Shown: piece after piece, positions 37,121 to 48,505 of the stretch
Numbering within the stretch: the first letter of the stretch is position 1
How the letters are laid out: every line of letters begins with the position of its first letter
Virus genome (UHGV): UHGV-0074814
Source: a virus
Direction: 5' to 3' (one strand)
DNA length: 52,958 nt
Notes under the pieces: model-generated
Seen by the model: the letters and a program-made list of their open reading frames with translations, nothing else
Databases searched by the model: none
Told to the model about the DNA's origin: nothing
Position numbers and translations under genes: made by a program

Positions 37121-37247
37121 TTTCATTACTGCAAATGCCCCTGCGGGGGCATTTATGGAAACATAATTTACTCAATAATCGCCGGATGGTGATGGCTTCC
37201 TTTTACCAGAATTCAGCGCGGTGCAGCGCATATACGTGGAGAACAAA

Positions 37248-37784
37248 ATGTCATTTATTAAAACTTTTTCCGGGAAGCATTTTTATTATGACAGGATAAA
37301 TAAAGACGACATCGTTATTAACGATATCGCGGTTTCCCTTTCAAATATCTGTCGCTTTGCAGGACATCTTTCACACTTCTACAGCGTCGCCCAACATGCG
37401 GTGCTTTGCAGCCAGCTGGTACCGCAGGAATTTGCTTTTGAAGCGTTAATGCATGATGCAACAGAAGCATATTGCCAGGACATCCCCGCACCACTGAAAC
37501 GCCTTCTTCCTGACTATAAACGGATGGAAGAAAAAATAGACGCCGTAATCCGTGAGAAATACGGGTTACCTCAGGCTATGAGCACGCCCGTGAAATATGC
37601 CGATCTCATCATGCTGGCAACCGAACGCCGCGATCTCGGGCTTGATGATGGCTCTTTCTGGCCAGTATTGGAAGGTATCCCGGCAACAGAGATGTTCGAA
37701 GTTGTTCCTCTGGCTCCTGGCCATGCCTACGAGATATTTATGGAACGTTTTAAAGAGCTGCATAAGATACATAAGCAATCCTGA
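37248..37784 (+). CDS. HD-domain 5'-deoxynucleotidase YfdR-like
   Basis: 178 aa from ATG with SD GGAGAA; HD motif ALMHDATEAY. Confidence 0.55.
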   Translation: MSFIKTFSGKHFYYDRINKDDIVINDIAVSLSNICRFAGHLSHFYSVAQHAVLCSQLVPQEFAFEALMHDATEAYCQDIPAPLKRLLPDYKRMEEKIDAVIREKYGLPQAMSTPVKYADLIMLATERRDLGLDDGSFWPVLEGIPATEMFEVVPLAPGHAYEIFMERFKELHKIHKQS

Positions 37785-37824: not shown

Positions 37825-38085
37825 ATGAGGTTATCAAAAATGCTTCAAATGCTGACACTTGAGGAATGGGCTGCGGAAAAATTTAGGAGTAATCCTCCAA
37901 GTGTGTCCACATTGCGTCGTTATGCTAAGCAGAATTTATTTTGTCCACCAGCAATGAAACAAGGTCGACTCTGGCGAGTACGTGAGGACGCAGAGTTAGT
38001 TGGGGAATTAGTTACTCCAGTAATCAAGAAAAGTGATTCTATTATTCTGCAAAGGATTTTAAGCAATGGCAGCCAGACCACGTAA
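37825..38085 (+). CDS. excisionase (lambda Xis-like); start may be one of two downstream ATGs
   Basis: MLTLEEW...STLRRYAKQNLFCPP resembles lambda Xis; overlaps integrase start. Confidence 0.6.
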   Translation: MRLSKMLQMLTLEEWAAEKFRSNPPSVSTLRRYAKQNLFCPPAMKQGRLWRVREDAELVGELVTPVIKKSDSIILQRILSNGSQTT

Positions 38086-39193
38086 AAATAATGTTTCAGT
38101 ACCTAACTTGTATCCGCTTTATAGTAGAAAAGTAAATAAAGTCTATTGGCGATATAAGCATCCAGTGACCGGGAAATTTCATTCGTTGGGCACAAATGAA
38201 GCTGAAGCTATTGCTATTGCCACTGAAGCTAACACTCGTCTGGCTGAGCAAAGAACCCGGCAGATTCTAGCTATCAGTGATAGGATCGCAACCAGCAAAG
38301 GAAAAGCGATCACAACGTCAACCTGGTTAGATCGCTATCAAGCGATCCAGGATGACAGGCTCAAAAGTGGTGATATAAGACTCAACACCTATAAGCAAAA
38401 AGCTAAACCAGTATCCTTGCTCAGAGAACGAGCAGGAATGAAGTTGATCTCATCCGTTGATGTTAGAGATATAGCACAATTGCTTGATGAGTATATTGCA
38501 GCTGGACAGCCTAGAATGGCCCAAGTCGTTAGGTCTGTATTGATCGATGTGTTTAAGGAAGCACAGCATTATGGCGAAGTTCCGCCAGGGTATAACCCTG
38601 CTCTTGCGACGAAGCAACCCAAAAGAAAAATTACCCGTCAACGCCTCAGCCTGGAAGAATGGCAAAAAATATTCGATATAGCAGACGCCAGTCATCGTTA
38701 CATGGGAAATGCCATGCTCCTAGCTTTGGTCACTGGGCAGCGTTTGGGAGATATATCCAAAATGAAATTTAGTGATATTTGGGAAGATCATCTTCACGTC
38801 ATTCAGGAAAAGACTGGAAGCAAAATCGCTATCCCTCTTTCTCTTCGCCTCAATGCGATTAACTGGAGTTTACGCGATGTAATAGCCCGCTGCCGTGACT
38901 ATGCAGTCAGCCCATACCTAGTGCATTTTTTCCGTTCAACTTCACAAGCAGAACGTGGGGCACAGGTTAAATCCAATACATTGACGATGAACTTTAGTAA
39001 AGCGAGAGATTTAGCAGGAATTGACTGGGGTGATGGCTCACCCGCAACATTCCATGAACAAAGATCGTTATCTGAACGCCTGTACAAGGAGCAAGGGATA
39101 GATACCAGAAAGCTACTTGGGCATAAAACACAACAACAAACCGATCGTTACCATGATGACCGAGGGAAAGGTTGGAGCAAAGTAGCTTTGTGA
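38066..39193 (+). CDS. tyrosine integrase (lambda Int family, e14 IntE-like)
   Basis: 375 aa; C-terminal catalytic region with R...HxxR...Y (HKTQQQTDRYHDD); adjacent to Xis and att-side icd repeat. Confidence 0.85.
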   Translation: MAARPRKNNVSVPNLYPLYSRKVNKVYWRYKHPVTGKFHSLGTNEAEAIAIATEANTRLAEQRTRQILAISDRIATSKGKAITTSTWLDRYQAIQDDRLKSGDIRLNTYKQKAKPVSLLRERAGMKLISSVDVRDIAQLLDEYIAAGQPRMAQVVRSVLIDVFKEAQHYGEVPPGYNPALATKQPKRKITRQRLSLEEWQKIFDIADASHRYMGNAMLLALVTGQRLGDISKMKFSDIWEDHLHVIQEKTGSKIAIPLSLRLNAINWSLRDVIARCRDYAVSPYLVHFFRSTSQAERGAQVKSNTLTMNFSKARDLAGIDWGDGSPATFHEQRSLSERLYKEQGIDTRKLLGHKTQQQTDRYHDDRGKGWSKVAL

Positions 39194-39403
39194 GCGTTTA
39201 AGTTTCTCAATCCCACATTAATTATCTCATCACACATGTAACAGGCCAAACAGACTGCTCTGAGCGACGAACCGTTGTTGACCAGTAACGCCATAGAGTA
39301 TATTCAGTAAGTGTTCCAATGTATATAAGAAATGCGCTGTGTATATTTTTAATTCAAAATAGTTTGAAGCACAATCATGAAACAGATTCTTATGAATACA
39401 AAA

Positions 39404-40519
39404 TTAAATTAAATCAAATAGCCCATGTTCATCTATAGCCTTTGAACTAATTAAGTTCGCGGCTTCTATGTCATTGTCACTTGCCTCAGAAATAAGGAAA
39501 AATGAATCAACATGATTTTGCAAAATAATTTCCTTATACTTCTTGAGCCATTGTAATTTACCTGTAGTGAACAATACTTTACGCGGTAGCAAAATACGGC
39601 TAAAAACTGATGGAAGATACTCACTTCTATTAAATGGAATAAAAGGGTCGCCTAAAGAAAGAATAGTTAGACGATTAAATTCACCGTGCGAATTCAATTT
39701 TTCAGCTGATTTGGCTATACCACTTGGTAAAAAAACACCTGTCTTGATACCGTTGCGTAAAGCAACAACAGCCATCATTTTATCAAAGGCAGTACCTCCA
39801 AATAATAAGGAATATCCTTTTTTAACAGAAAGATCAATAGTATCAAGAACAACTTGTTTTTCTATATCACTTGGTGACGTGCTCGAAATTATCGAAAGAT
39901 CAAAATCAGTAAATAACTGCCCAGTATAATAAAGATTTTTGCCGGTGAAAGTTGACAACTTTAAAGGAAACATTTTATCATCATGCTTAATTTCAGATAC
40001 ATTAAGATCTGTTAAGGATGGATAGTTAAAGTTTGGTGAGGCTTTTCCGTGTTTATTATTTTTTGATGCCTGCGGACTAAAAACTAGAATTTCATTTTTA
40101 TTATTACACAGGTAATCCTGTATCATTTTTTTTACAATATCCCAATCAAGACCACCGTGACCACAACCTAAAGCTGGCAGGGTGATTGTTTTTCCATGTT
40201 TATTATCCAAATATTTCGAGAGCCAATGCAGTCCTTTTTCGATATATTCGTACTTAGACTTATTTCTCCAATGATCCTTGGTGGGAAAGTTTATGATTTC
40301 TATTTCCTTACCATACGTATCATTACCTTTCCAAACAGCTGGTCTTCCTGGAGATATTTCTCCTTTTTTACACAGCAATACGTATTCATTATACATTTCA
40401 GGAAACTTATTCTTAAAAGCAAAAGCAACCCCTGCCCCCATTACACCAACACAATTAACTGTATTAATTCTAATGTCAGCAGCATAATCGAAAAAATCAC
40501 CATCAACATATCTAATCAT
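39404..40519 (-). CDS. macro-domain protein (DarG/TARG1-like) with C-terminal Rossmann-like domain; candidate antitoxin
   Basis: GDFFDYAADIRINTVNCVGVMGAGVAFAFKNKFPEMY and ALGCGHGGLDW macro motifs; start set at ATG with SD AAGGAGG (ORF track extends to 40645); AT-rich. Confidence 0.55.
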   Translation of the reverse strand: MIRYVDGDFFDYAADIRINTVNCVGVMGAGVAFAFKNKFPEMYNEYVLLCKKGEISPGRPAVWKGNDTYGKEIEIINFPTKDHWRNKSKYEYIEKGLHWLSKYLDNKHGKTITLPALGCGHGGLDWDIVKKMIQDYLCNNKNEILVFSPQASKNNKHGKASPNFNYPSLTDLNVSEIKHDDKMFPLKLSTFTGKNLYYTGQLFTDFDLSIISSTSPSDIEKQVVLDTIDLSVKKGYSLLFGGTAFDKMMAVVALRNGIKTGVFLPSGIAKSAEKLNSHGEFNRLTILSLGDPFIPFNRSEYLPSVFSRILLPRKVLFTTGKLQWLKKYKEIILQNHVDSFFLISEASDNDIEAANLISSKAIDEHGLFDLI

Positions 40520-40991
40520 AAAACCTCCTTTGGTCAGAGTATACATCCTTATTTCTGGCTCTTCAATTCTATTGTCAAAAACTTTTACAAAGTCTGCATC
40601 AGTAAAACTGATGGCGCATTTTAAAATTAAAATCAATATGTCCATATCAAACGTTATATTTGTTATTTTTTGTATTTATTATTCATATCCATCATGTGCT
40701 ATTAAATCGCCCAAAAGAACATAATAAATTATGTGCACCACTTTCTTCTTATTGAATTTTGGATTACATTACGATCTAAATTAGATCTTTTGCCAATATC
40801 ATAAACATATGCAGCAAACGTTGCAACAAGCTGTTCTCATTCTAACAGTTAGTAGAATATAAACTCTGTAATTAGCACACTGAATTCCCTTCATCTATGA
40901 GTTACAACATCCTTTAAGTGAATAGTATTGTTAGTTTAAATCTATTAATATCATTCATAAAACTATTTTATATAGTTAAAGTCATTATAAA

Positions 40992-41015
40992 TCCATCTGA
41001 ATATATACAGATGGA
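40992..41015. promoter_or_regulatory. perfect palindrome TCCATCTG-N8-CAGATGGA in intergenic spacer (candidate operator)
   Basis: 8-bp inverted arms with 8-bp AT spacer, read directly. Confidence 0.3.
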
Positions 41016-41226
41016 TTCTGCCAATAGTCTTTGCAGGTGAAGTGCATGTTATATATTTTTTAGGGAATATATTTTCTAATTATTTCTCAGATAAAAATTT
41101 GCAGAACGAAATTACTTTACATAATACCGAATGTTACAGATTATTTTATTGCATATAAGCATTGAACTAACCACTATCACAGTGACTATGTTAATCATAA
41201 AATCTGCATCAAATTCAAAAAGCTCC

Positions 41227-42573
41227 TCATAAACTGTTCCCCTGCAATCTTTGGAGAACTTCATCCCGGAGATCATCGATCCCGTCAGAAACCTGAGCTA
41301 ACCAAACTTGACTTAATGAGCCAATATCAGCCTTACTTAGGGCTACTAACATATTGATATCTTCAGAAGATGTAACTATATCGAACAACTGATTTTTATT
41401 CCTCCCTTTAGCTACTATTTCCCCCAATAAATCATCATACGTAACTAACATCATTATTTTTCTAACTAGATCGGTTTGTATGACTGGCAGATCTTCTGTC
41501 AAAATTCGTTGTAGCATCGCAAGTGACTTCCTAGGATGCTCTCCATCTGCCTCATGCATGTAATTATTATTCCAACGTGTTTTAGGCCCTTTGCCTATAT
41601 CATGCAAATAAGCGGCCAACTCCAAAACTTCCTGATGAATAGAGTCTAATTGATAAAACTCTGGTGAATTAACTACAAGACTAGCCACTCGTCGACTATG
41701 AGAGCCAACATCTTCATTATGAGGCCCGTAGCTCGTCCCCAATCCATCGATATCTTCAAGCTCTTGGATGGAGGAGAAATTACCACGAATTGCACTTAGA
41801 GCATCACTAATACTTTGAAATTTTGGCCTCGTTTCTCGTTGAAATGAAGTTACATATTCAATAGCTTCATCAAAAAGCATTTTTAACACTACCGGTCCCG
41901 TGACTAAGGATGAGGACCAGTTTCCAGGTTGATAATAATAATGTTGAAAATCACCCTCAACAATATTTGGTGGAACAATACCTTTGTTCTGGAAAATACT
42001 CCTCACAATATCAGACATAGAACGATTCCATGTAATTATCTGATTTATTTCGCTTAAAGAGACATGATCTGGCAGCAAAAGTTCTGCCATCTTTTTATGC
42101 CTCTGAGTCTCGTCAGCATAACCCCATGCATTATTATCTATGGTAGCCCAATCTAATACATCAAGCTGGTCAGCTTGAGTATTACCAGAATAAAAGTTCG
42201 GTGGATTAACTGTATTTGCGGAAGCATCTGTAAAATATGACCCATTCCTTGTTTCGAGTGATAATATAGAAACTGAAAGATAGATAATAAATTGCTGATC
42301 TACATTTTTTTTATGAAGAACAGACAATTGCATGGGCGTTTTTTTTGCAAAATAAAAAGGAACATAATCATGAACACAACGACCATTCGTATTAGGCACC
42401 TGCATCACTGCCCTACGCCCCTGTATTCCTTCATCAGCAACATTCACATGTGATATACGACGTGCAATTTTCTGATTAGTCGAAAACAGCCCAGTTTCAA
42501 TTATTGATTCAAGATTATCTACTGACGTAAAGTGATATGCATTTCGGTGTCTATGGTGAACAGGAACTGTCAT
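41227..42573 (-). CDS. DarT-like (DUF4433) ADP-ribosyltransferase domain fused to HD phosphohydrolase domain; candidate toxin
   Basis: N-terminal YHFTSVDNLESIIETGL, HDYVPFYF and YFTDASA resemble DarT; C-terminal HSRRVASLVV...LAAYLHDIGK is an HD motif; SD GGGGGA; AT-rich. Confidence 0.5.
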   Translation of the reverse strand: MTVPVHHRHRNAYHFTSVDNLESIIETGLFSTNQKIARRISHVNVADEGIQGRRAVMQVPNTNGRCVHDYVPFYFAKKTPMQLSVLHKKNVDQQFIIYLSVSILSLETRNGSYFTDASANTVNPPNFYSGNTQADQLDVLDWATIDNNAWGYADETQRHKKMAELLLPDHVSLSEINQIITWNRSMSDIVRSIFQNKGIVPPNIVEGDFQHYYYQPGNWSSSLVTGPVVLKMLFDEAIEYVTSFQRETRPKFQSISDALSAIRGNFSSIQELEDIDGLGTSYGPHNEDVGSHSRRVASLVVNSPEFYQLDSIHQEVLELAAYLHDIGKGPKTRWNNNYMHEADGEHPRKSLAMLQRILTEDLPVIQTDLVRKIMMLVTYDDLLGEIVAKGRNKNQLFDIVTSSEDINMLVALSKADIGSLSQVWLAQVSDGIDDLRDEVLQRLQGNSL

Positions 42574-42928
42574 GTATCCCCCATGAAAAACTATAAAAAT
42601 TTAGGTAGTGTGCTTTATATTATTACAGTAATTGTAAATTACCGATATAGGATATCAACCTTCCTGTGATCTAGGTCACTCAGGATGAGCAACTTCCTAT
42701 TGATTAGGATTCAAAATGTTTGAAATGTGCGCTTACAGAACCACAGGCCACTTTGAGCGAAGAACAGACCTAAATATAAACGAGGGTTAATCAGCAATAA
42801 TTATAATAAACTGAGGTATGCCTAATTGGAACTTGACAATATAACTACCATCTCTCCCTAAACAACTAGGAGTTTTGATAACTTATTTTGATAAAATTTT
42901 GATAACCGTTAGCAGACTAACAAAAAAC

Positions 42929-42951
42929 AACGGGAGCGTTACACTCCCGTT
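42929..42951 (-). terminator. rho-independent terminator hairpin downstream of icd 3' copy 2
   Basis: Stem aacgggag/ctcccgtt, 7-nt loop; on minus strand followed by GTTTTTTGTT. Confidence 0.45.
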
Positions 42952-42974
42952 AATAGATTTAACAAATCACGATA

Positions 42975-43139
42975 TTACATATTCTTGATGATCGCATCAC
43001 CAAATTCTGAACATTTCAGCAGTTTAGCACCTTCCATCAGACGTTCGAAGTCATAGGTTACGGTCTTCGCGTTGATTGCGCCTTCCATACCTTTAACAAT
43101 CAGGTCTGCGGCTTCAGTCCAACCCATATGGCGCAGCAG
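42975..43139 (-). pseudogene. icd: icd 3'-terminal fragment (copy 2, attL-side)
   Basis: Translation [54 protein letters not shown]-stop; ~9 mismatches vs copy 1 over 165 bp. Confidence 0.8.
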
Positions 43140-43598
43140 TATATAAAAATTATGTATTCAACTCGCTGATATTTAATCATAAATATTATTTTCTTGTCTT
43201 TGTATTAGCCAAAATCAACTTTATTCAACCGTTTGATTTCATTGACGTTCGTTTTTATTTTGGGGAAAGATTTTCTCTACCATTTATATCAAAATTACAA
43301 GTCTACATTTTATTAACATCTCAATACATGTGTGGCCTTGCAAGCCATTGCGAGGCCTTATGTGTCTCAGTTTTGTCCCGCCTTGTATTACGACTTGCAT
43401 AGCCAATGAAGATAAACGTGACGACAAACAAAGCAGCTGTCTTCTTTTCTTTCACACTTTCCCCACTCAGCAGCATGCATACCTTCTACTATAACTGTAG
43501 TGAATGTCTATTATGAGCGAACTGCGGACATCGTGGAGACAACATGCTGCTGGGTGCGGATATCCCATGGCACGTCATATCGCTCGCCGTATTACTTG

Positions 43599-44369
43599 TT
43601 ATTTTTTTGAAACGAGAAGTTGATACAATTCCTTCAGGGATAAGGCTAATAACTCATTCTTCCTGATGAGATCTTTATCAGCGTCTATACCCTCTGCGCA
43701 TGATTCATTTAAATAGTTCAGTGTTTCCTGATCATCATCCAAGCATTCATAGCTGCCTGAATAAAATTCATCGCAACTTGCTTTGTTATTTTTGTCAATG
43801 TAACCAATGCATTGAATCACGCCTTTAACAACTTTAGCAGCAGAAAAAACAAAGTAACTGCAGTCATTTATATAGCGTTCAATATCAAAAATCATATAAA
43901 AATAGTGCATAGAGTGTTTTTCAATTTCAAACTCACTTGAAATCATAGCTATTTCACATTCAAGGTCTTTCAGACCATCTAACATTATGGAAAGTTTACA
44001 TTGTTTTTCTTGCACAGTTTCATACTTAAATGACTCTCTCCCCTTTGCCCTGACATTTATTCTTTCTTCAATTGCATAAATATAAGCAGGATATACACGC
44101 GACCACACTTGGTTTATTTTTAGGATTAACCGGCCTCTTTTCAGCCTTTCTTTTGTAGCTATAAATTCTGCATATAGCGCAGCATCCTCTTCGCACCATA
44201 CATCAACTTTTCGTTTATAACCCAACTTTAATTCTTTCCCTACGCATTCAGGAAACAAAGGATCAAAGTCCTTTAAGTATTCAAACTCACTTAGATAGAA
44301 TCCTGTCTCATAACGATTAAATAATTTCCTAAACTCTTTCCCACTTAAGGTTTTCATTGTATCAATCAC
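43599..44369 (-). CDS. hypothetical AT-rich cargo protein (256 aa)
   Basis: Clean ORF with strongly AT-biased codon usage; no motif recognised. Confidence 0.4.
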   Translation of the reverse strand: MIDTMKTLSGKEFRKLFNRYETGFYLSEFEYLKDFDPLFPECVGKELKLGYKRKVDVWCEEDAALYAEFIATKERLKRGRLILKINQVWSRVYPAYIYAIEERINVRAKGRESFKYETVQEKQCKLSIMLDGLKDLECEIAMISSEFEIEKHSMHYFYMIFDIERYINDCSYFVFSAAKVVKGVIQCIGYIDKNNKASCDEFYSGSYECLDDDQETLNYLNESCAEGIDADKDLIRKNELLALSLKELYQLLVSKK

Positions 44370-44963
44370 TCTGTTTTCATAAAAGCAAAGTCAACAAGAT
44401 AAAACAATAAAAACTCTTACACAACCAGCTGATGTTTTTAAAATAGAGGATAATATAAGACAAGCATAACCTCGTTCACTTCAATGCTACTCCTATCGTT
44501 CTTTTGCGTCACAGAGCGCCTGCCGGACAACTGCATCATAGACCAAACGGAACTGCTTCCGTCGATTAATCAGATGGCAGCGCATAAACACGCTCAACAA
44601 CCCGTTTGACTGCTTCAATTTTAAGCTCTTCGGAATAACGCTTACCGTGTAAGTCTCCCTGCAAAACGAGCTATCAACTTTTAAGGAGTCTCTGGCCCCC
44701 CTGCTTCCGCTCCTGGCACACAGCAGCCCTAGAGACAGTGGAGTAAAGTCATGGAGGCTCGGTGGGGGGAGGTGCAAATCCTCCCATACAAAAAATACGA
44801 AAATCAGTAACGGCTAGAAATCATTCAATACATGCACTCTCGAAATTGCATCAGCCAACCGCAAAACGTTATTTCAAAGCCTACTAGCTGCCTTACTTTT
44901 TTCCTCAATAACGCGTCGCCAGCAGGAAACAACCTAATCCCTGTTTTGGGCCTCAAAGCTGCT

Positions 44964-44982
44964 AATGATAATCATTTTCATT
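44964..44982 (+). promoter_or_regulatory. Fur box upstream of sitA
   Basis: AATGATAATCATTTTCATT matches Fur consensus GATAATGATAATCATTATC at about 15 of 19 positions. Confidence 0.5.
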
Positions 44983-45001
44983 TTGTATAGGCTGTGCTAT
45001 A

Positions 45002-45055: not shown

Positions 45056-45970
45056 ATGCACTCGATAAAAAAAGTAACCATGCTCTTGGGGGGGCTCGCA
45101 CTCACCTGCTCGATCGCATTTCAGGCAAGTGCAACTGAAAAATTCAAGGTCATTACAACATTTACCATCATCGCGGATATGGCCAAAAACGTGGCGGGAG
45201 ATGCTGCAGAAGTCTCATCCATAACCAAGCCTGGTGCAGAAATTCATGAGTATCAGCCTACCCCTGGCGATATTAAACGTGCGCAGGGGGCACAACTGAT
45301 TCTCGCCAATGGTATGAATCTGGAATTGTGGTTCCAACGCTTTTACCAGCATCTCAATGGGGTTCCAGAAGTAATTGTCTCTTCGGGTGTGACGCCTGTA
45401 GGGATCACCGAAGGACCCTATGAGGGCAAACCTAACCCCCATGCATGGATGTCGCCAGATAATGCTCTGATTTACGTCGATAATATTCGTGATGCGTTGA
45501 TAAAATACGATCCGGCAAATGCACAAACCTACCAACGCAATGCCGATACTTATAAAGCCAAGATTACCCAAACCCTTGCCCCCCTGCGTAAGCAGATTAC
45601 GGAACTCCCTGAGAATCAGCGATGGATGGTCACCAGTGAAGGGGCTTTTTCTTATCTCGCACGCGATTTGGGGCTAAAAGAGCTTTATCTGTGGCCGATT
45701 AATGCCGATCAACAAGGAACACCGCAGCAGGTACGTAAGGTTGTTGATATAGTTAAGAAAAATCATATCCCGGCAGTCTTTAGCGAGAGTACGATTTCCG
45801 ATAAACCAGCGCGTCAGGTTGCGCGTGAAACCGGCGCACACTACGGCGGTGTGCTCTATGTCGATTCCCTGAGCACAGAAAACGGCCCGGTACCGACGTA
45901 TATCGACCTTCTTAAGGTTACTACCAGTACGCTGGTACAGGGAATTAAAGCTGGGAAAAGGGAGAAATAA
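45056..45970 (+). CDS. sitA: Mn/Fe ABC transporter periplasmic binding protein SitA
   Basis: Signal peptide, 304 aa, first gene of four-gene ABC operon with Fur and MntR boxes. Confidence 0.8.
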
Positions 45971-46797
45971 TGATGCAATCTGCAGGCATTGTCGTTAATG
46001 ATGTTACTGTCACCTGGCGTAACGGGCACACAGCACTGCGCGATGCATCCTTCACAGTACCAAGTGGATCTATTGCCGCTCTGGTTGGGGTAAACGGTTC
46101 CGGAAAATCGACGTTGTTTAAAGCGATTATGGGATTTGTGCGTCTGACCAGCGGAAAGATATCTGTTCTGGGTATTCCCACGCGACAGGCGTTACAGAAA
46201 AACCTGGTTGCCTACGTCCCTCAGTCAGAAGATGTTGACTGGTCATTTCCTGTACTGGTGGAAGATGTGGTGATGATGGGCCGCTATGGGCATATGGGTA
46301 TGTTGCGTATCGCCAAAAAGAGGGATCGTCAAATTGTCACCGATGCGCTGGAACGTGTCGATATGGTGAATTTTCGCCATCGACAAATCGGCGAGCTTTC
46401 CGGTGGACAAAAGAAACGCGTCTTTCTGGCGAGAGCGATTGCACAGCAGGGTGATGTGATCCTGCTGGATGAACCTTTTACTGGCGTTGATGTGAAAACC
46501 GAAGCCAAAATCATCAGCCTGTTGAGGGAGTTACGCGCGGAAGGCAAAACGATGCTTGTCTCAACACACAATCTCGGATCCGTCACGACATTTTGCGATT
46601 ATACGGTCATGGTCAAAGGCACCGTCCTGGCAAGCGGGCCGACAGACACCACTTTTACAGCCGAGAACCTAGAGCTGGCTTTTAGCGGCGTACTGCGCCA
46701 TGTCACACTTAACGGCTCGGAAGAAAGCATTATTACTGACGATGAACGCCCTTTTGTGGCTCATCGACCGTCAGCGGTGCAGAGGGAAGAAAGATGA
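45970..46797 (+). CDS. sitB: Mn/Fe ABC transporter ATP-binding protein SitB
   Basis: Walker [10 protein letters not shown], signature LSGGQKKR, Walker B ILLDEP. Confidence 0.85.
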
Positions 46798-47651
46798 ACG
46801 TGCTACTGGAACCCTTCAGCTATGAATATATGCTCAATGCGATGTGGGTCTCGGCGATGGTCGGCGGTCTCTGCGCTTTCCTGTCATGCTATCTGATGCT
46901 AAAAGGCTGGTCGCTGATTGGCGATGCGTTGTCGCACTCTATTGTCCCGGGTGTTGCGGGGGCATATATGCTGGGGCTTCCGTTTTCTCTGGGAGCCTTC
47001 TTTTCCGGCGGACTGGCTGCGGGCAGCATGCTGTTTCTTAACCAACGCACCCGCTTAAAAGAAGATGCCATCATCGGTCTGATCTTCTCGTCCTTTTTTG
47101 GCCTGGGGCTGTTTATGGTGTCATTGAACCCGACATCTGTGAACATTCAGACCATCGTCCTGGGCAATATTCTGGCAATCGATCCGGCGGATATCCTGCA
47201 ACTCACTATCATTGGCATTCTCTCGATCATCGTGCTTTTTTTCAAATGGAAAGATCTTATGGTGACCTTTTTCGACGAGAATCACGCCCGTGCTATTGGA
47301 TTGCATCCGGGCAGATTAAAACTCCTCTTCTTCACCCTGCTGTCGGTTTCGACCGTTGCGGCGCTGCAAACGGTTGGTGCCTTTCTGGTGATCTGTCTGG
47401 TGGTGACTCCCGGTGCAACAGCATGGTTGTTAACCGATCGTTTTCCCCGCCTGCTCATGATTGCTGTAACTATTGGCAGTGTAACCAGTTTCCTCGGCGC
47501 GTGGGTCAGTTACTTTCTGGACGGCGCGACAGGTGGAATCATCGTGGTGGCGCAGACACTGCTGTTTCTTTTAGCATTTGTCTTTGCGCCCACCCATGGG
47601 CTTTTGGCAAATCGTCGGCGTGCGCATAAGGCGCTGGAGGATCGCTCATGA
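46794..47651 (+). CDS. sitC: Mn/Fe ABC transporter permease SitC
   Basis: 285 aa polytopic membrane protein, overlapping starts in operon. Confidence 0.8.
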
Positions 47652-48505
47652 TGGCATTATTACTGGAGCCACTGCAGTTCACCTTTATGAGTCACGCACT
47701 GCTGATTTCACTGGTAGTTTCCATACCCTGTGCGCTGCTGTCGGTCTTTCTGGTCCTGAAAGGTTGGGCACTGATGGGTGACGCGATGAGTCATGCGGTT
47801 TTTCCTGGCATCGTGCTTGCCTGGATTCTGGGGTTACCTTTGGCTACAGGGGCATTCGTCGCCGGAGTATTCTGCGCGGTGGCGACGGGATACCTGAAAG
47901 ACAACAGCCGAATCAAGCAAGATACAGTGATGGGGATTGTTTTTTCTGGCATGTTTGCCGCAGGTCTGATCTTGTATATTGCAGTCAAACCAGACGTACA
48001 TCTTGACCATATTCTTTTCGGCGACATGCTCGGGATAACCATCGGCGATATAATCCAGACGATGATTATTGCCGGGCTGGTTACACTTGTTATTAGCGTA
48101 AAATGGCGGGATTTTTTGCTGTTCAGCTTTGATTATCAACAGGCGCAGGTAAGCGGTTTGCATACGAGATGGCTGCATTATGGGCTGCTGTGCATGGTCT
48201 CTCTGACCATTGTGGCGACGCTGAAAGCGGTAGGTATCATTCTCTCCATTTCTCTGCTCATTGCGCCTGGCGCCATTGCGGTACTCCTGACACAACGCTT
48301 TCATATTGCGCTCCTACTGGCGACTGGCATATCGGTAATAGTGTCAATGACTGGTGTCTGGTTGTCCTTTTTTATCGACAGCGCACCAGCTCCGACGATT
48401 GTCGTCTTATTCGCGGTTTTGTTCATCATGACGTTTGCCGTTACCAGCATCAACGCACGCAAAAAGGGAAACTCCCATACACAGGATCTGTTATCACCCA
48501 ATTAG
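47648..48505 (+). CDS. sitD: Mn/Fe ABC transporter permease SitD
   Basis: 285 aa polytopic membrane protein paralogous to SitC. Confidence 0.8.
   Translation: MMALLLEPLQFTFMSHALLISLVVSIPCALLSVFLVLKGWALMGDAMSHAVFPGIVLAWILGLPLATGAFVAGVFCAVATGYLKDNSRIKQDTVMGIVFSGMFAAGLILYIAVKPDVHLDHILFGDMLGITIGDIIQTMIIAGLVTLVISVKWRDFLLFSFDYQQAQVSGLHTRWLHYGLLCMVSLTIVATLKAVGIILSISLLIAPGAIAVLLTQRFHIALLLATGISVIVSMTGVWLSFFIDSAPAPTIVVLFAVLFIMTFAVTSINARKKGNSHTQDLLSPN

Follow-up and report, generated by a model that had tools for sequence, protein, structure and literature searches.

DarTG systems are an established paradigm of phage defence and of toxin-antitoxin (TA) biology, and the variants described so far differ only in the eraser, which is a macrodomain, a NADAR domain or an ARH-type enzyme. 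As DarTG1 and DarHTG illustrate, the antitoxin module of these systems is exchangeable (PMC11543638; PMC13069673). Here we describe a two-gene cassette at positions 39404-42573 of the viral genome UHGV-0074814 (52,958 nt; this whole stretch is called the window below), which is likely to be a prophage-borne DarTG-type TA and abortive-infection module of a DarT-HD subfamily whose toxin is neutralised mainly enzymatically. What appears new is a conserved, apparently catalytic HD domain on the writer, together with the replacement of the eraser's toxin-binding domain by a DprA-like, putatively single-stranded DNA (ssDNA)-binding module. The most informative aspect of the locus is that its toxin and antitoxin form a non-cognate pair separated by gene debris. 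In window coordinates, with lengths in amino acids (aa), the cassette consists of:

41227-42573, minus strand: darT-HD toxin gene of clade A, an intact open reading frame (ORF) of 448 aa matched by Pfam DarT and HD and by PADLOC DarT (1e-42)
41935-42537, minus strand: DarT ADP-ribosyltransferase domain, aa 13-213 (Pfam PF14487, E 5e-40), with predicted catalytic residue E164
41314-41721, minus strand: HD phosphohydrolase core, aa 285-420, with conserved H285, H292, H324-D325, H346, D380-D381 and D416
39404-40519, minus strand: macro-DprA-like antitoxin gene of clade B, 371 aa (PADLOC DarG 7e-58; NCBIfam DarG 224.7 bits)
40025-40519, minus strand: DarG/TARG1-type macrodomain, aa 1-165 (phmmer matches to DarG macrodomains), with predicted catalytic residue K81
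39407-40012, minus strand: DprA-like (SLOG superfamily) Rossmann domain, aa 170-371

An earlier, sequence-only reading of this DNA had assigned the 448-aa protein to the DarT family and its C-terminal part to the HD phosphohydrolases, and both assignments stand. The Pfam DarT/DUF4433 profile (PF14487) scores 137.8 bits against a cutoff of 22.5 and is covered over positions 1-200 of 201, as is the NCBIfam DarT model over positions 2-202 of 204, and the motifs YHFT, HDYVPFYF, TDASANT and LHDIGK lie at aa 13, 68, 115 and 323, respectively. By phmmer, the DarT domain matches Thermus DarT 7omv (E 5e-13), and E164 aligns to the E160 position of that enzyme, at which the 7omv chain carries Ala; E160 is an essential DarT residue (PMC5179494). 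Pfam HD matches aa 290-361 of the window protein (28 bits, cutoff 22), with the H...HD...D metal ligands present, and likewise matches all 68 DarT-HD sequences used for conservation analysis. In at least 95% of these sequences, which are only 45-86% identical to the window toxin, H285, H292 (in HSRRVA), H324-D325 (in LHDIGKGPK), H346, D380-D381 and D416 are retained. Because of this conservation the HD domain is putatively catalytic: its metal site is fully conserved, no other part of the toxin is as constrained, and the domain is probably an active enzyme. A sequence search of the HD region against the PDB returned noise only. When a structural model of it was compared with the PDB by Foldseek, 3wfs alone stood out and the remainder was noise; as modelled, the fold similarity is generic to the HD superfamily and too generic to name a substrate. 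At the N-terminus of the DarT domain (aa 12-60; about 42394-42540 in the window), sub-threshold matches to Pfam DUF7002 were seen in 45 of the 68 family members, which suggests that DUF7002 is a DarT-related family.

For the downstream gene, a TARG1/DarG-type macrodomain followed by a DprA/SLOG-like Rossmann domain had been proposed. The macrodomain is well supported: Pfam Macro matches at E 4e-17, the DarG macrodomains 5m31 (E 3e-31) and 5m3i (E 2e-30) are phmmer matches, and K81 (in FPTKDHW) aligns to K80 of Thermus aquaticus DarG, the experimentally defined catalytic Lys (PMC11543638). The motifs NTVNCVGVMGAGVA, GCGHGGLDW and LLFGGTAFDK lie at aa 19, 118 and 238 of the 371-aa protein. In the profile searches that the sequence-only reading had suggested (DUF4433, HD and Macro), DarT and macro were thus detected far beyond chance. 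Its DprA/SLOG assignment held for the fold, the C-terminal domain being predicted to adopt a DprA-type Rossmann fold, and not for the Pfam score: DNA_processg_A (PF02481) does not match the window antitoxin, and among its relatives the best matches reach 27-28.5 bits against a cutoff of 29.6, with matches at E<=0.01 in 25 of 81. The DarG models align to the antitoxin over the macro part only (positions 1-162 of 338 for NCBIfam, 1-160 of 329 for PADLOC). With the C-terminal domain alone as query, a word-indexed search for homologues gave 8 matches, and an exhaustive search (E<=0.001) gave 21 cluster representatives, which are either of macro-fusion length (about 370-382 aa) or short fragments; among these 21, the domain occurs in no other protein context. 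Against the PDB, its sequence search yielded noise only.

Both partners are longer than their canonical counterparts, as the sequence-only reading had pointed out. In a canonical control pair from Pigmentibacter (DarT of 211 aa, DarG of 344 aa), the NCBIfam models are covered end to end at 214 and 441 bits. The canonical C-terminal DarT-binding domain of DarG was not detected in the window family, and hhalign of the family profile against Pigmentibacter DarG aligns the macrodomain only. The domain fusions, which had been called atypical, are real, and they are common to a whole family rather than special to this locus. DarT-HD homologues of about 445 aa number at least 958 at E<1e-5, mostly in Gammaproteobacteria and also on Alphaproteobacterial and Klebsiella plasmids. 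Since a full-length macro-DprA-like gene follows darT-HD in all 13 distinct intact operons examined, drawn from genomes, metagenomes and IMG/VR contigs and usually with overlapping stop and start codons, the HD domain on the toxin and the DprA-like domain on the antitoxin travel together. PHROGs lists both proteins as full-length families of unknown function, and RefSeq names them "DarT family protein" and "macro domain-containing protein" only. A literature search found no published description of the DarT-HD/macro-DprA architecture, with an earlier description not fully excluded, and it apparently constitutes a distinct, uncharacterised DarTG subfamily, which defence-finder tools will call plain DarTG. 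The Vibrio cholerae DarTG (Seed lab) was considered as a system of this type and rejected, its DarG being 347 aa. A different mobile-element cargo site is used by the family in E. coli LR-28, where a degraded P2-like prophage (L002, 4018-13166) carries the clade-B operon in intact form, adjoining ogrK and tail genes and near a gene for a 610-aa DUF7380 protein.

The two genes of the window belong to different branches of this family. Its toxin is 73-91% identical to clade-A homologues (73-83% to the toxins of Citrobacter, E. coli and Vibrio) and 42% identical to the clade-B toxin of LR-28. In the identity matrix its antitoxin is 85-88% identical within clade B, including 85% to the 371-aa proteins of LR-28 and Citrobacter, and 43-44% identical to the antitoxins that partner clade-A toxins. 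Judged by these identities, the window pair is a non-cognate evolutionary chimera of a clade-A toxin and a clade-B antitoxin. The genes are co-oriented and in the toxin-then-antitoxin order of DarTG, with putative co-transcription across a gap of 707 bp (40520-41226) that contains two remnants:

40997-41226, minus strand: remains of the 5' part of a clade-A macro antitoxin gene, covering about aa 7-95 and broken by stops and frameshifts
40520-40995, minus strand: remains of the 3' (HD) part of a clade-B darT-HD gene, covering about aa 258-443 and likewise broken by stops and frameshifts

The clade-A remnant was recovered in three ways: clade-A macro proteins match it by tblastn over aa 8-26 (E 1e-3), the macro gene of locus L007 matches it by blastn at its 5' end (92% over 26 nt), and a hidden Markov model (HMM) of the family matches with positions 7-26 and 73-94 in the window and with 7-27 and 68-95 in locus L009 (full E 1.7e-4); the remnant peptide reads FEFDADFMINIVTV versus FEFDADIMVNTVNCV. 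The clade-B remnant matches the LR-28 DarT-HD protein by tblastn at aa 278-326 (E 2e-10) and aa 371-438 (E 6e-12), its DNA by blastn at 71-78%, and the family HMM at positions 258-326 (E 3e-7) and 368-431. By these matches the 707 bp are fully accounted for, with about 230 nt from the 5' end of a clade-A macro gene followed by about 475 nt from the 3' end of a clade-B darT-HD. The AT-rich spacer of about 700 bp described by the sequence-only reading is therefore right in its length, and it consists of gene debris rather than plain spacer. In the simplest history, a deletion with one endpoint within the clade-A antitoxin and the other within the clade-B toxin joined two tandem systems. The spacer was also considered as the site of a regulatory RNA or small gene, and this was rejected because the two pseudogene remnants account for its entire length; an Rfam scan of 39000-45000 gave no credible match.

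The same debris bears on where the antitoxin begins. Its longest ORF (39404-40645, minus strand) has 413 aa, as does the RefSeq model WP_198559745.1 (window extension 40520-40645; 6206-7447 in L001). Because an AAGGAGG stands 5 nt ahead of the ATG at 40519, which is M43 of the 413-aa ORF, and because the relatives all have 371-382 aa and are alignable from the Met at M43, translation most likely starts there and yields the 371-aa product. The 413-aa ORF was rejected as the real antitoxin, given this ribosome-binding site, the length of the relatives and a 1-nt difference that breaks the frame of the 42-codon extension in three other chimeric loci (L009, L003 and L010). The extra codons of the RefSeq model are probably an in-frame pseudogene remnant of the clade-B toxin C-terminus, making the annotation over-extended.

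These three loci, from a metagenome contig (L009), Citrobacter freundii (L003) and Pectobacterium (L010), carry the chimera with an alignable spacer, L009 in the same icd/intE context as the window. Leaving out the close pair of the window and L009 (94% in the genes and 86% in the spacer), the chimeric loci share 81-88% DNA identity in their genes, with undisrupted frames, and 58-66% in their spacers, with about 90-130 gapped positions. The ratio of nonsynonymous to synonymous substitution rates (dN/dS) is 0.15-0.30 for the toxin, at 0.21 in the DarT part and 0.096, the lowest value within the toxin, in the HD part; for the antitoxin it is 0.08-0.14, at 0.115 in the macrodomain and 0.12 in the C-terminal domain. 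With low dN/dS and undisrupted frames set against fast-diverging spacers, both chimera genes are under purifying selection while the debris decays. In Pectobacterium sp. CHL-2024 (L010, 1876-7076), an intact DarT-HD of a third type (47-49% identity to clade A and clade B) lies upstream and is followed by a frameshifted, truncated macro gene. The order is thus toxin C, dead antitoxin C, toxin A, debris and antitoxin B, with two intact toxins and one antitoxin. A segment with "a macro domain protein and 2 DUF4433 proteins" has also been mentioned in a paper on SGI1-related islands.

In the reading we favour, the DarT domain, with E164 as its catalytic residue, would carry out NAD+-dependent ADP-ribosylation of ssDNA bases. 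Two things make thymidine the probable base: the toxin is partnered by a DarG-type macrodomain, and the Thermus enzyme, the closest DarT of solved structure, is specific for thymidine. The macrodomain would strip the ADP-ribose adduct by means of K81, and the DprA-like domain, in place of the canonical DarT-binding C-terminus, would most likely position this hydrolase on ssDNA in the manner of ShosA, which binds ssDNA and requires this binding for its antitoxin activity (PMC11961720). Abortive-infection defence would ensue when a phage upsets the balance between toxin and antitoxin. We infer a mainly enzymatic (type IV-like) neutralisation without partner specificity, because a foreign antitoxin suffices in the chimera and because toxins are stacked.

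Several points weigh against this reading. The toxicity and the DNA ADP-ribosylation, like the base specificity and the role in phage defence, are predictions from homology, and both proteins score below the NCBIfam equivalog cutoffs (NF048013/NF048014; 135.4 vs 150 for DarT, 224.7 vs 250 for DarG). The C-terminal domain of the window antitoxin is near neutral (pI 6.1, versus a basic family mean of 8.6), a charge that is equivocal and does not clearly support DNA binding. Expression of the antitoxin is presumed across the 707 bp of debris, in which promoter-like sites are not enriched over shuffled sequence. Finally, the strict co-occurrence of the HD and DprA-like domains fits direct contact between them as well, and with such contact the clade-B antitoxin might neutralise the clade-A toxin only partly.

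Direct contact is the essence of a possible but rather doubtful alternative, in which the DprA-like domain binds and blocks the HD domain of the toxin (type II-like), the two having co-evolved as a lock and key that replaces the canonical DarT-DarG C-terminal interface, with the HD domain chiefly serving docking or regulation. The co-occurrence is strict in all loci examined, intact operons show the overlap of toxin and antitoxin genes that is seen in complex-forming TA pairs, and, with mean pI values of 5.5 and 8.6, the HD region is acidic and the family of C-terminal domains basic; moreover, the canonical DarG C-terminus is known to bind and occlude DarT. However, at least four lineages have kept, under purifying selection, a clade-A toxin paired with an antitoxin from clade B (the clades being 42-44% identical), and because this non-cognate pairing is long-lived, a docking interface is arguably not essential. 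In Pectobacterium a single antitoxin stands behind two different intact toxins, and invariant HD metal ligands are not required for pure docking. Those ligands, the lowest dN/dS within the toxin and a weak NCBIfam match of its HD region to the HD part of GlnD would instead suit a second catalytic step on the DarT product, either cleavage of the pyrophosphate to leave phosphoribosyl-DNA, as in the pairing of ADP-ribosyltransferase (ART) and phosphodiesterase (PDE) in SidE, or erasure or trimming of the mark, as in the writer/eraser proteins GlnD and SpoT. We consider this improbable: the generic fold similarity does not allow the substrate to be read, and a macrodomain of the DarG type would probably be unable to remove a phosphoribosyl adduct, which fits poorly with a catalytic antitoxin and toxin stacking.

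A more elaborate version, to which we likewise give little credence, is a two-step toxin whose HD domain processes the DarT-installed ADP-ribose (for example to phosphoribosyl-DNA) into a lesion resistant to the DarG or NADAR mimics of phages, while the macro-DprA-like antitoxin scans ssDNA and forestalls this on the host's own DNA; a catalytic and generic antitoxin would then allow toxin stacking and swapping, of which the chimera and the three-layer Pectobacterium locus would be snapshots. If the HD domain did perform new chemistry on ADP-ribosylated DNA, the significance would be high; otherwise it is moderate. That the system is a decaying relic in which one or both genes have ceased to function seems highly improbable. 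The pseudogene fragments between the genes, the rarity of the whole locus (7 of 5,426 complete E. coli genomes) and the IS50R insertion in the toxin gene of E. coli MDR_56 would all be in keeping with loss, but both ORFs are intact with their catalytic residues retained, dN/dS is 0.08-0.30 per domain with a spacer that diverges much faster, and the arrangement persists in Citrobacter and Pectobacterium as well as in E. coli and on a metagenome contig. Mainly enzymatic neutralisation of a DarT-HD toxin by a macrodomain antitoxin thus remains the reading we prefer.

The cassette occupies the cargo slot that the sequence-only reading had named, the one in which the e14 prophage carries lit. This slot and a candidate promoter are delimited as follows:

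38066-39193, plus strand: intE-type integrase, one bound of the cargo slot (Pfam lambda-integrase Arm-binding and Phage_integrase; annotated intE in APEC O2-211)
42975-43138, minus strand: icd 3' fragment on the att side of the e14-like prophage, its translation being the icd C-terminus and matching annotated icd in E. coli genomes
42631-42658, minus strand: candidate sigma-70 promoter TTGATA-16-TACAAT upstream of darT-HD (consensus scan, 10 of 12 matches; weak evidence)

Promoter- and terminator-like sites in the scan were as numerous as in shuffled sequence, and no antitoxin promoter can be claimed from it; between the toxin and antitoxin genes it found no terminator-like site. The cassette lies in a stretch of 27-41% GC, compared with 41-53% in its flanks. 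APEC O2-211 has the same cassette between intE and icd, and the e14 prophage of K-12 has lit-ymfE-ymfD in the corresponding slot. Lit has an abortive-infection function, being a peptidase that cleaves EF-Tu. The complete E. coli genomes with the whole cassette are mostly avian isolates; an intact clade-B operon occurs in three other genomes, and an identical copy of the cassette is found on an IMG/VR viral contig. In MDR_56 (NZ_CP019903.1, 3148355-3153832), IS50R splits darT-HD into separately annotated DarT and HD ORFs; this strain is a natural toxin knock-out, with the remainder of the cassette 99.9% identical.

Homology of the icd fragment to E. coli icd ends at 43133-43138. In the window the fragment is followed by a 256-aa ORF and then by sitA, the rest of icd not being there, and in the seven complete genomes with the cassette an intact icd comes next. 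An arrangement of icd fragment, hypothetical gene and sitA occurs in 739 genomes, none of which covers the exact junction of the window. By this layout the window has tandem elements at icd. The 256-aa ORF (43599-44369, minus strand), in a stretch of 33-35% GC, matches phrog_20520 (function unknown) over its full length, Pfam and NCBIfam giving nothing and PADLOC nothing significant; a degenerate element may have carried it as a further cargo gene. Just past the prophage end lies a four-gene operon (45056-48505, plus strand) whose first gene is sitA, encoding the substrate-binding protein of an iron/manganese ABC transporter. On the other side, upstream of xis/int, a small HD protein (37221-37784, plus strand; YfdR/YfbR-like 5'-deoxynucleotidase, just below the Pfam cutoff) is encoded separately and has no relation to the toxin's HD domain.

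Two questions are raised by this subfamily, namely what role a phosphohydrolase plays beside a DNA ADP-ribosyltransferase and whether a macrodomain antitoxin can work when its binding to the toxin is not cognate. Chimeric and stacked loci serve here as natural experiments, suggesting that an enzymatic antitoxin lets toxins swap or accumulate while redundant antitoxins decay. Such exchange and accumulation of toxins would be a mode of TA and defence evolution barred to classical sequestering antitoxins.

Among known systems, e14 Lit sits, like the cassette, in the prophage slot bounded by intE and the icd attachment site, and is itself an abortive-infection function, but protein and mechanism are unrelated. 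Legionella SidE unites a mono-ART and a PDE in one polypeptide, a likeness generic to the fold; its target is ubiquitin or protein rather than DNA, and two-step chemistry is improbable in the window system. In ShosTA, the DprA-like antitoxin ShosA carries a SAM domain instead of a macrodomain and is only 16% identical in sequence, and the toxin ShosT, not being a DarT, is a phosphoribosyltransferase, of which the window locus encodes none. Closer are DarTG1 (DarT1 and NADAR) and DarHTG (DarT, an ARH-like DarG3 and a helicase), which likewise combine a DarT-family toxin with an ADP-ribosylation-reversing enzyme; the window antitoxin, however, is a macrodomain rather than NADAR or ARH, the helicase is absent, and the additional domains differ (HD and DprA-like).

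The nearest relative is DarTG2, known from Thermus, Mycobacterium tuberculosis, enteropathogenic E. coli (EPEC) and E. coli phage defence. The window system shares with it the DarT/DUF4433 ART toxin with its catalytic Glu, the DarG-type macrodomain antitoxin with its catalytic Lys, the toxin-then-antitoxin order and the location on a mobile element or in a defence island. It departs from DarTG2 in the additional C-terminal part of the toxin (about 235 aa with the HD phosphohydrolase), in an antitoxin whose C-terminal half is DprA-like and has no detectable similarity to the canonical DarT-binding domain, and in a pair that is non-cognate, with its genes 707 bp apart.

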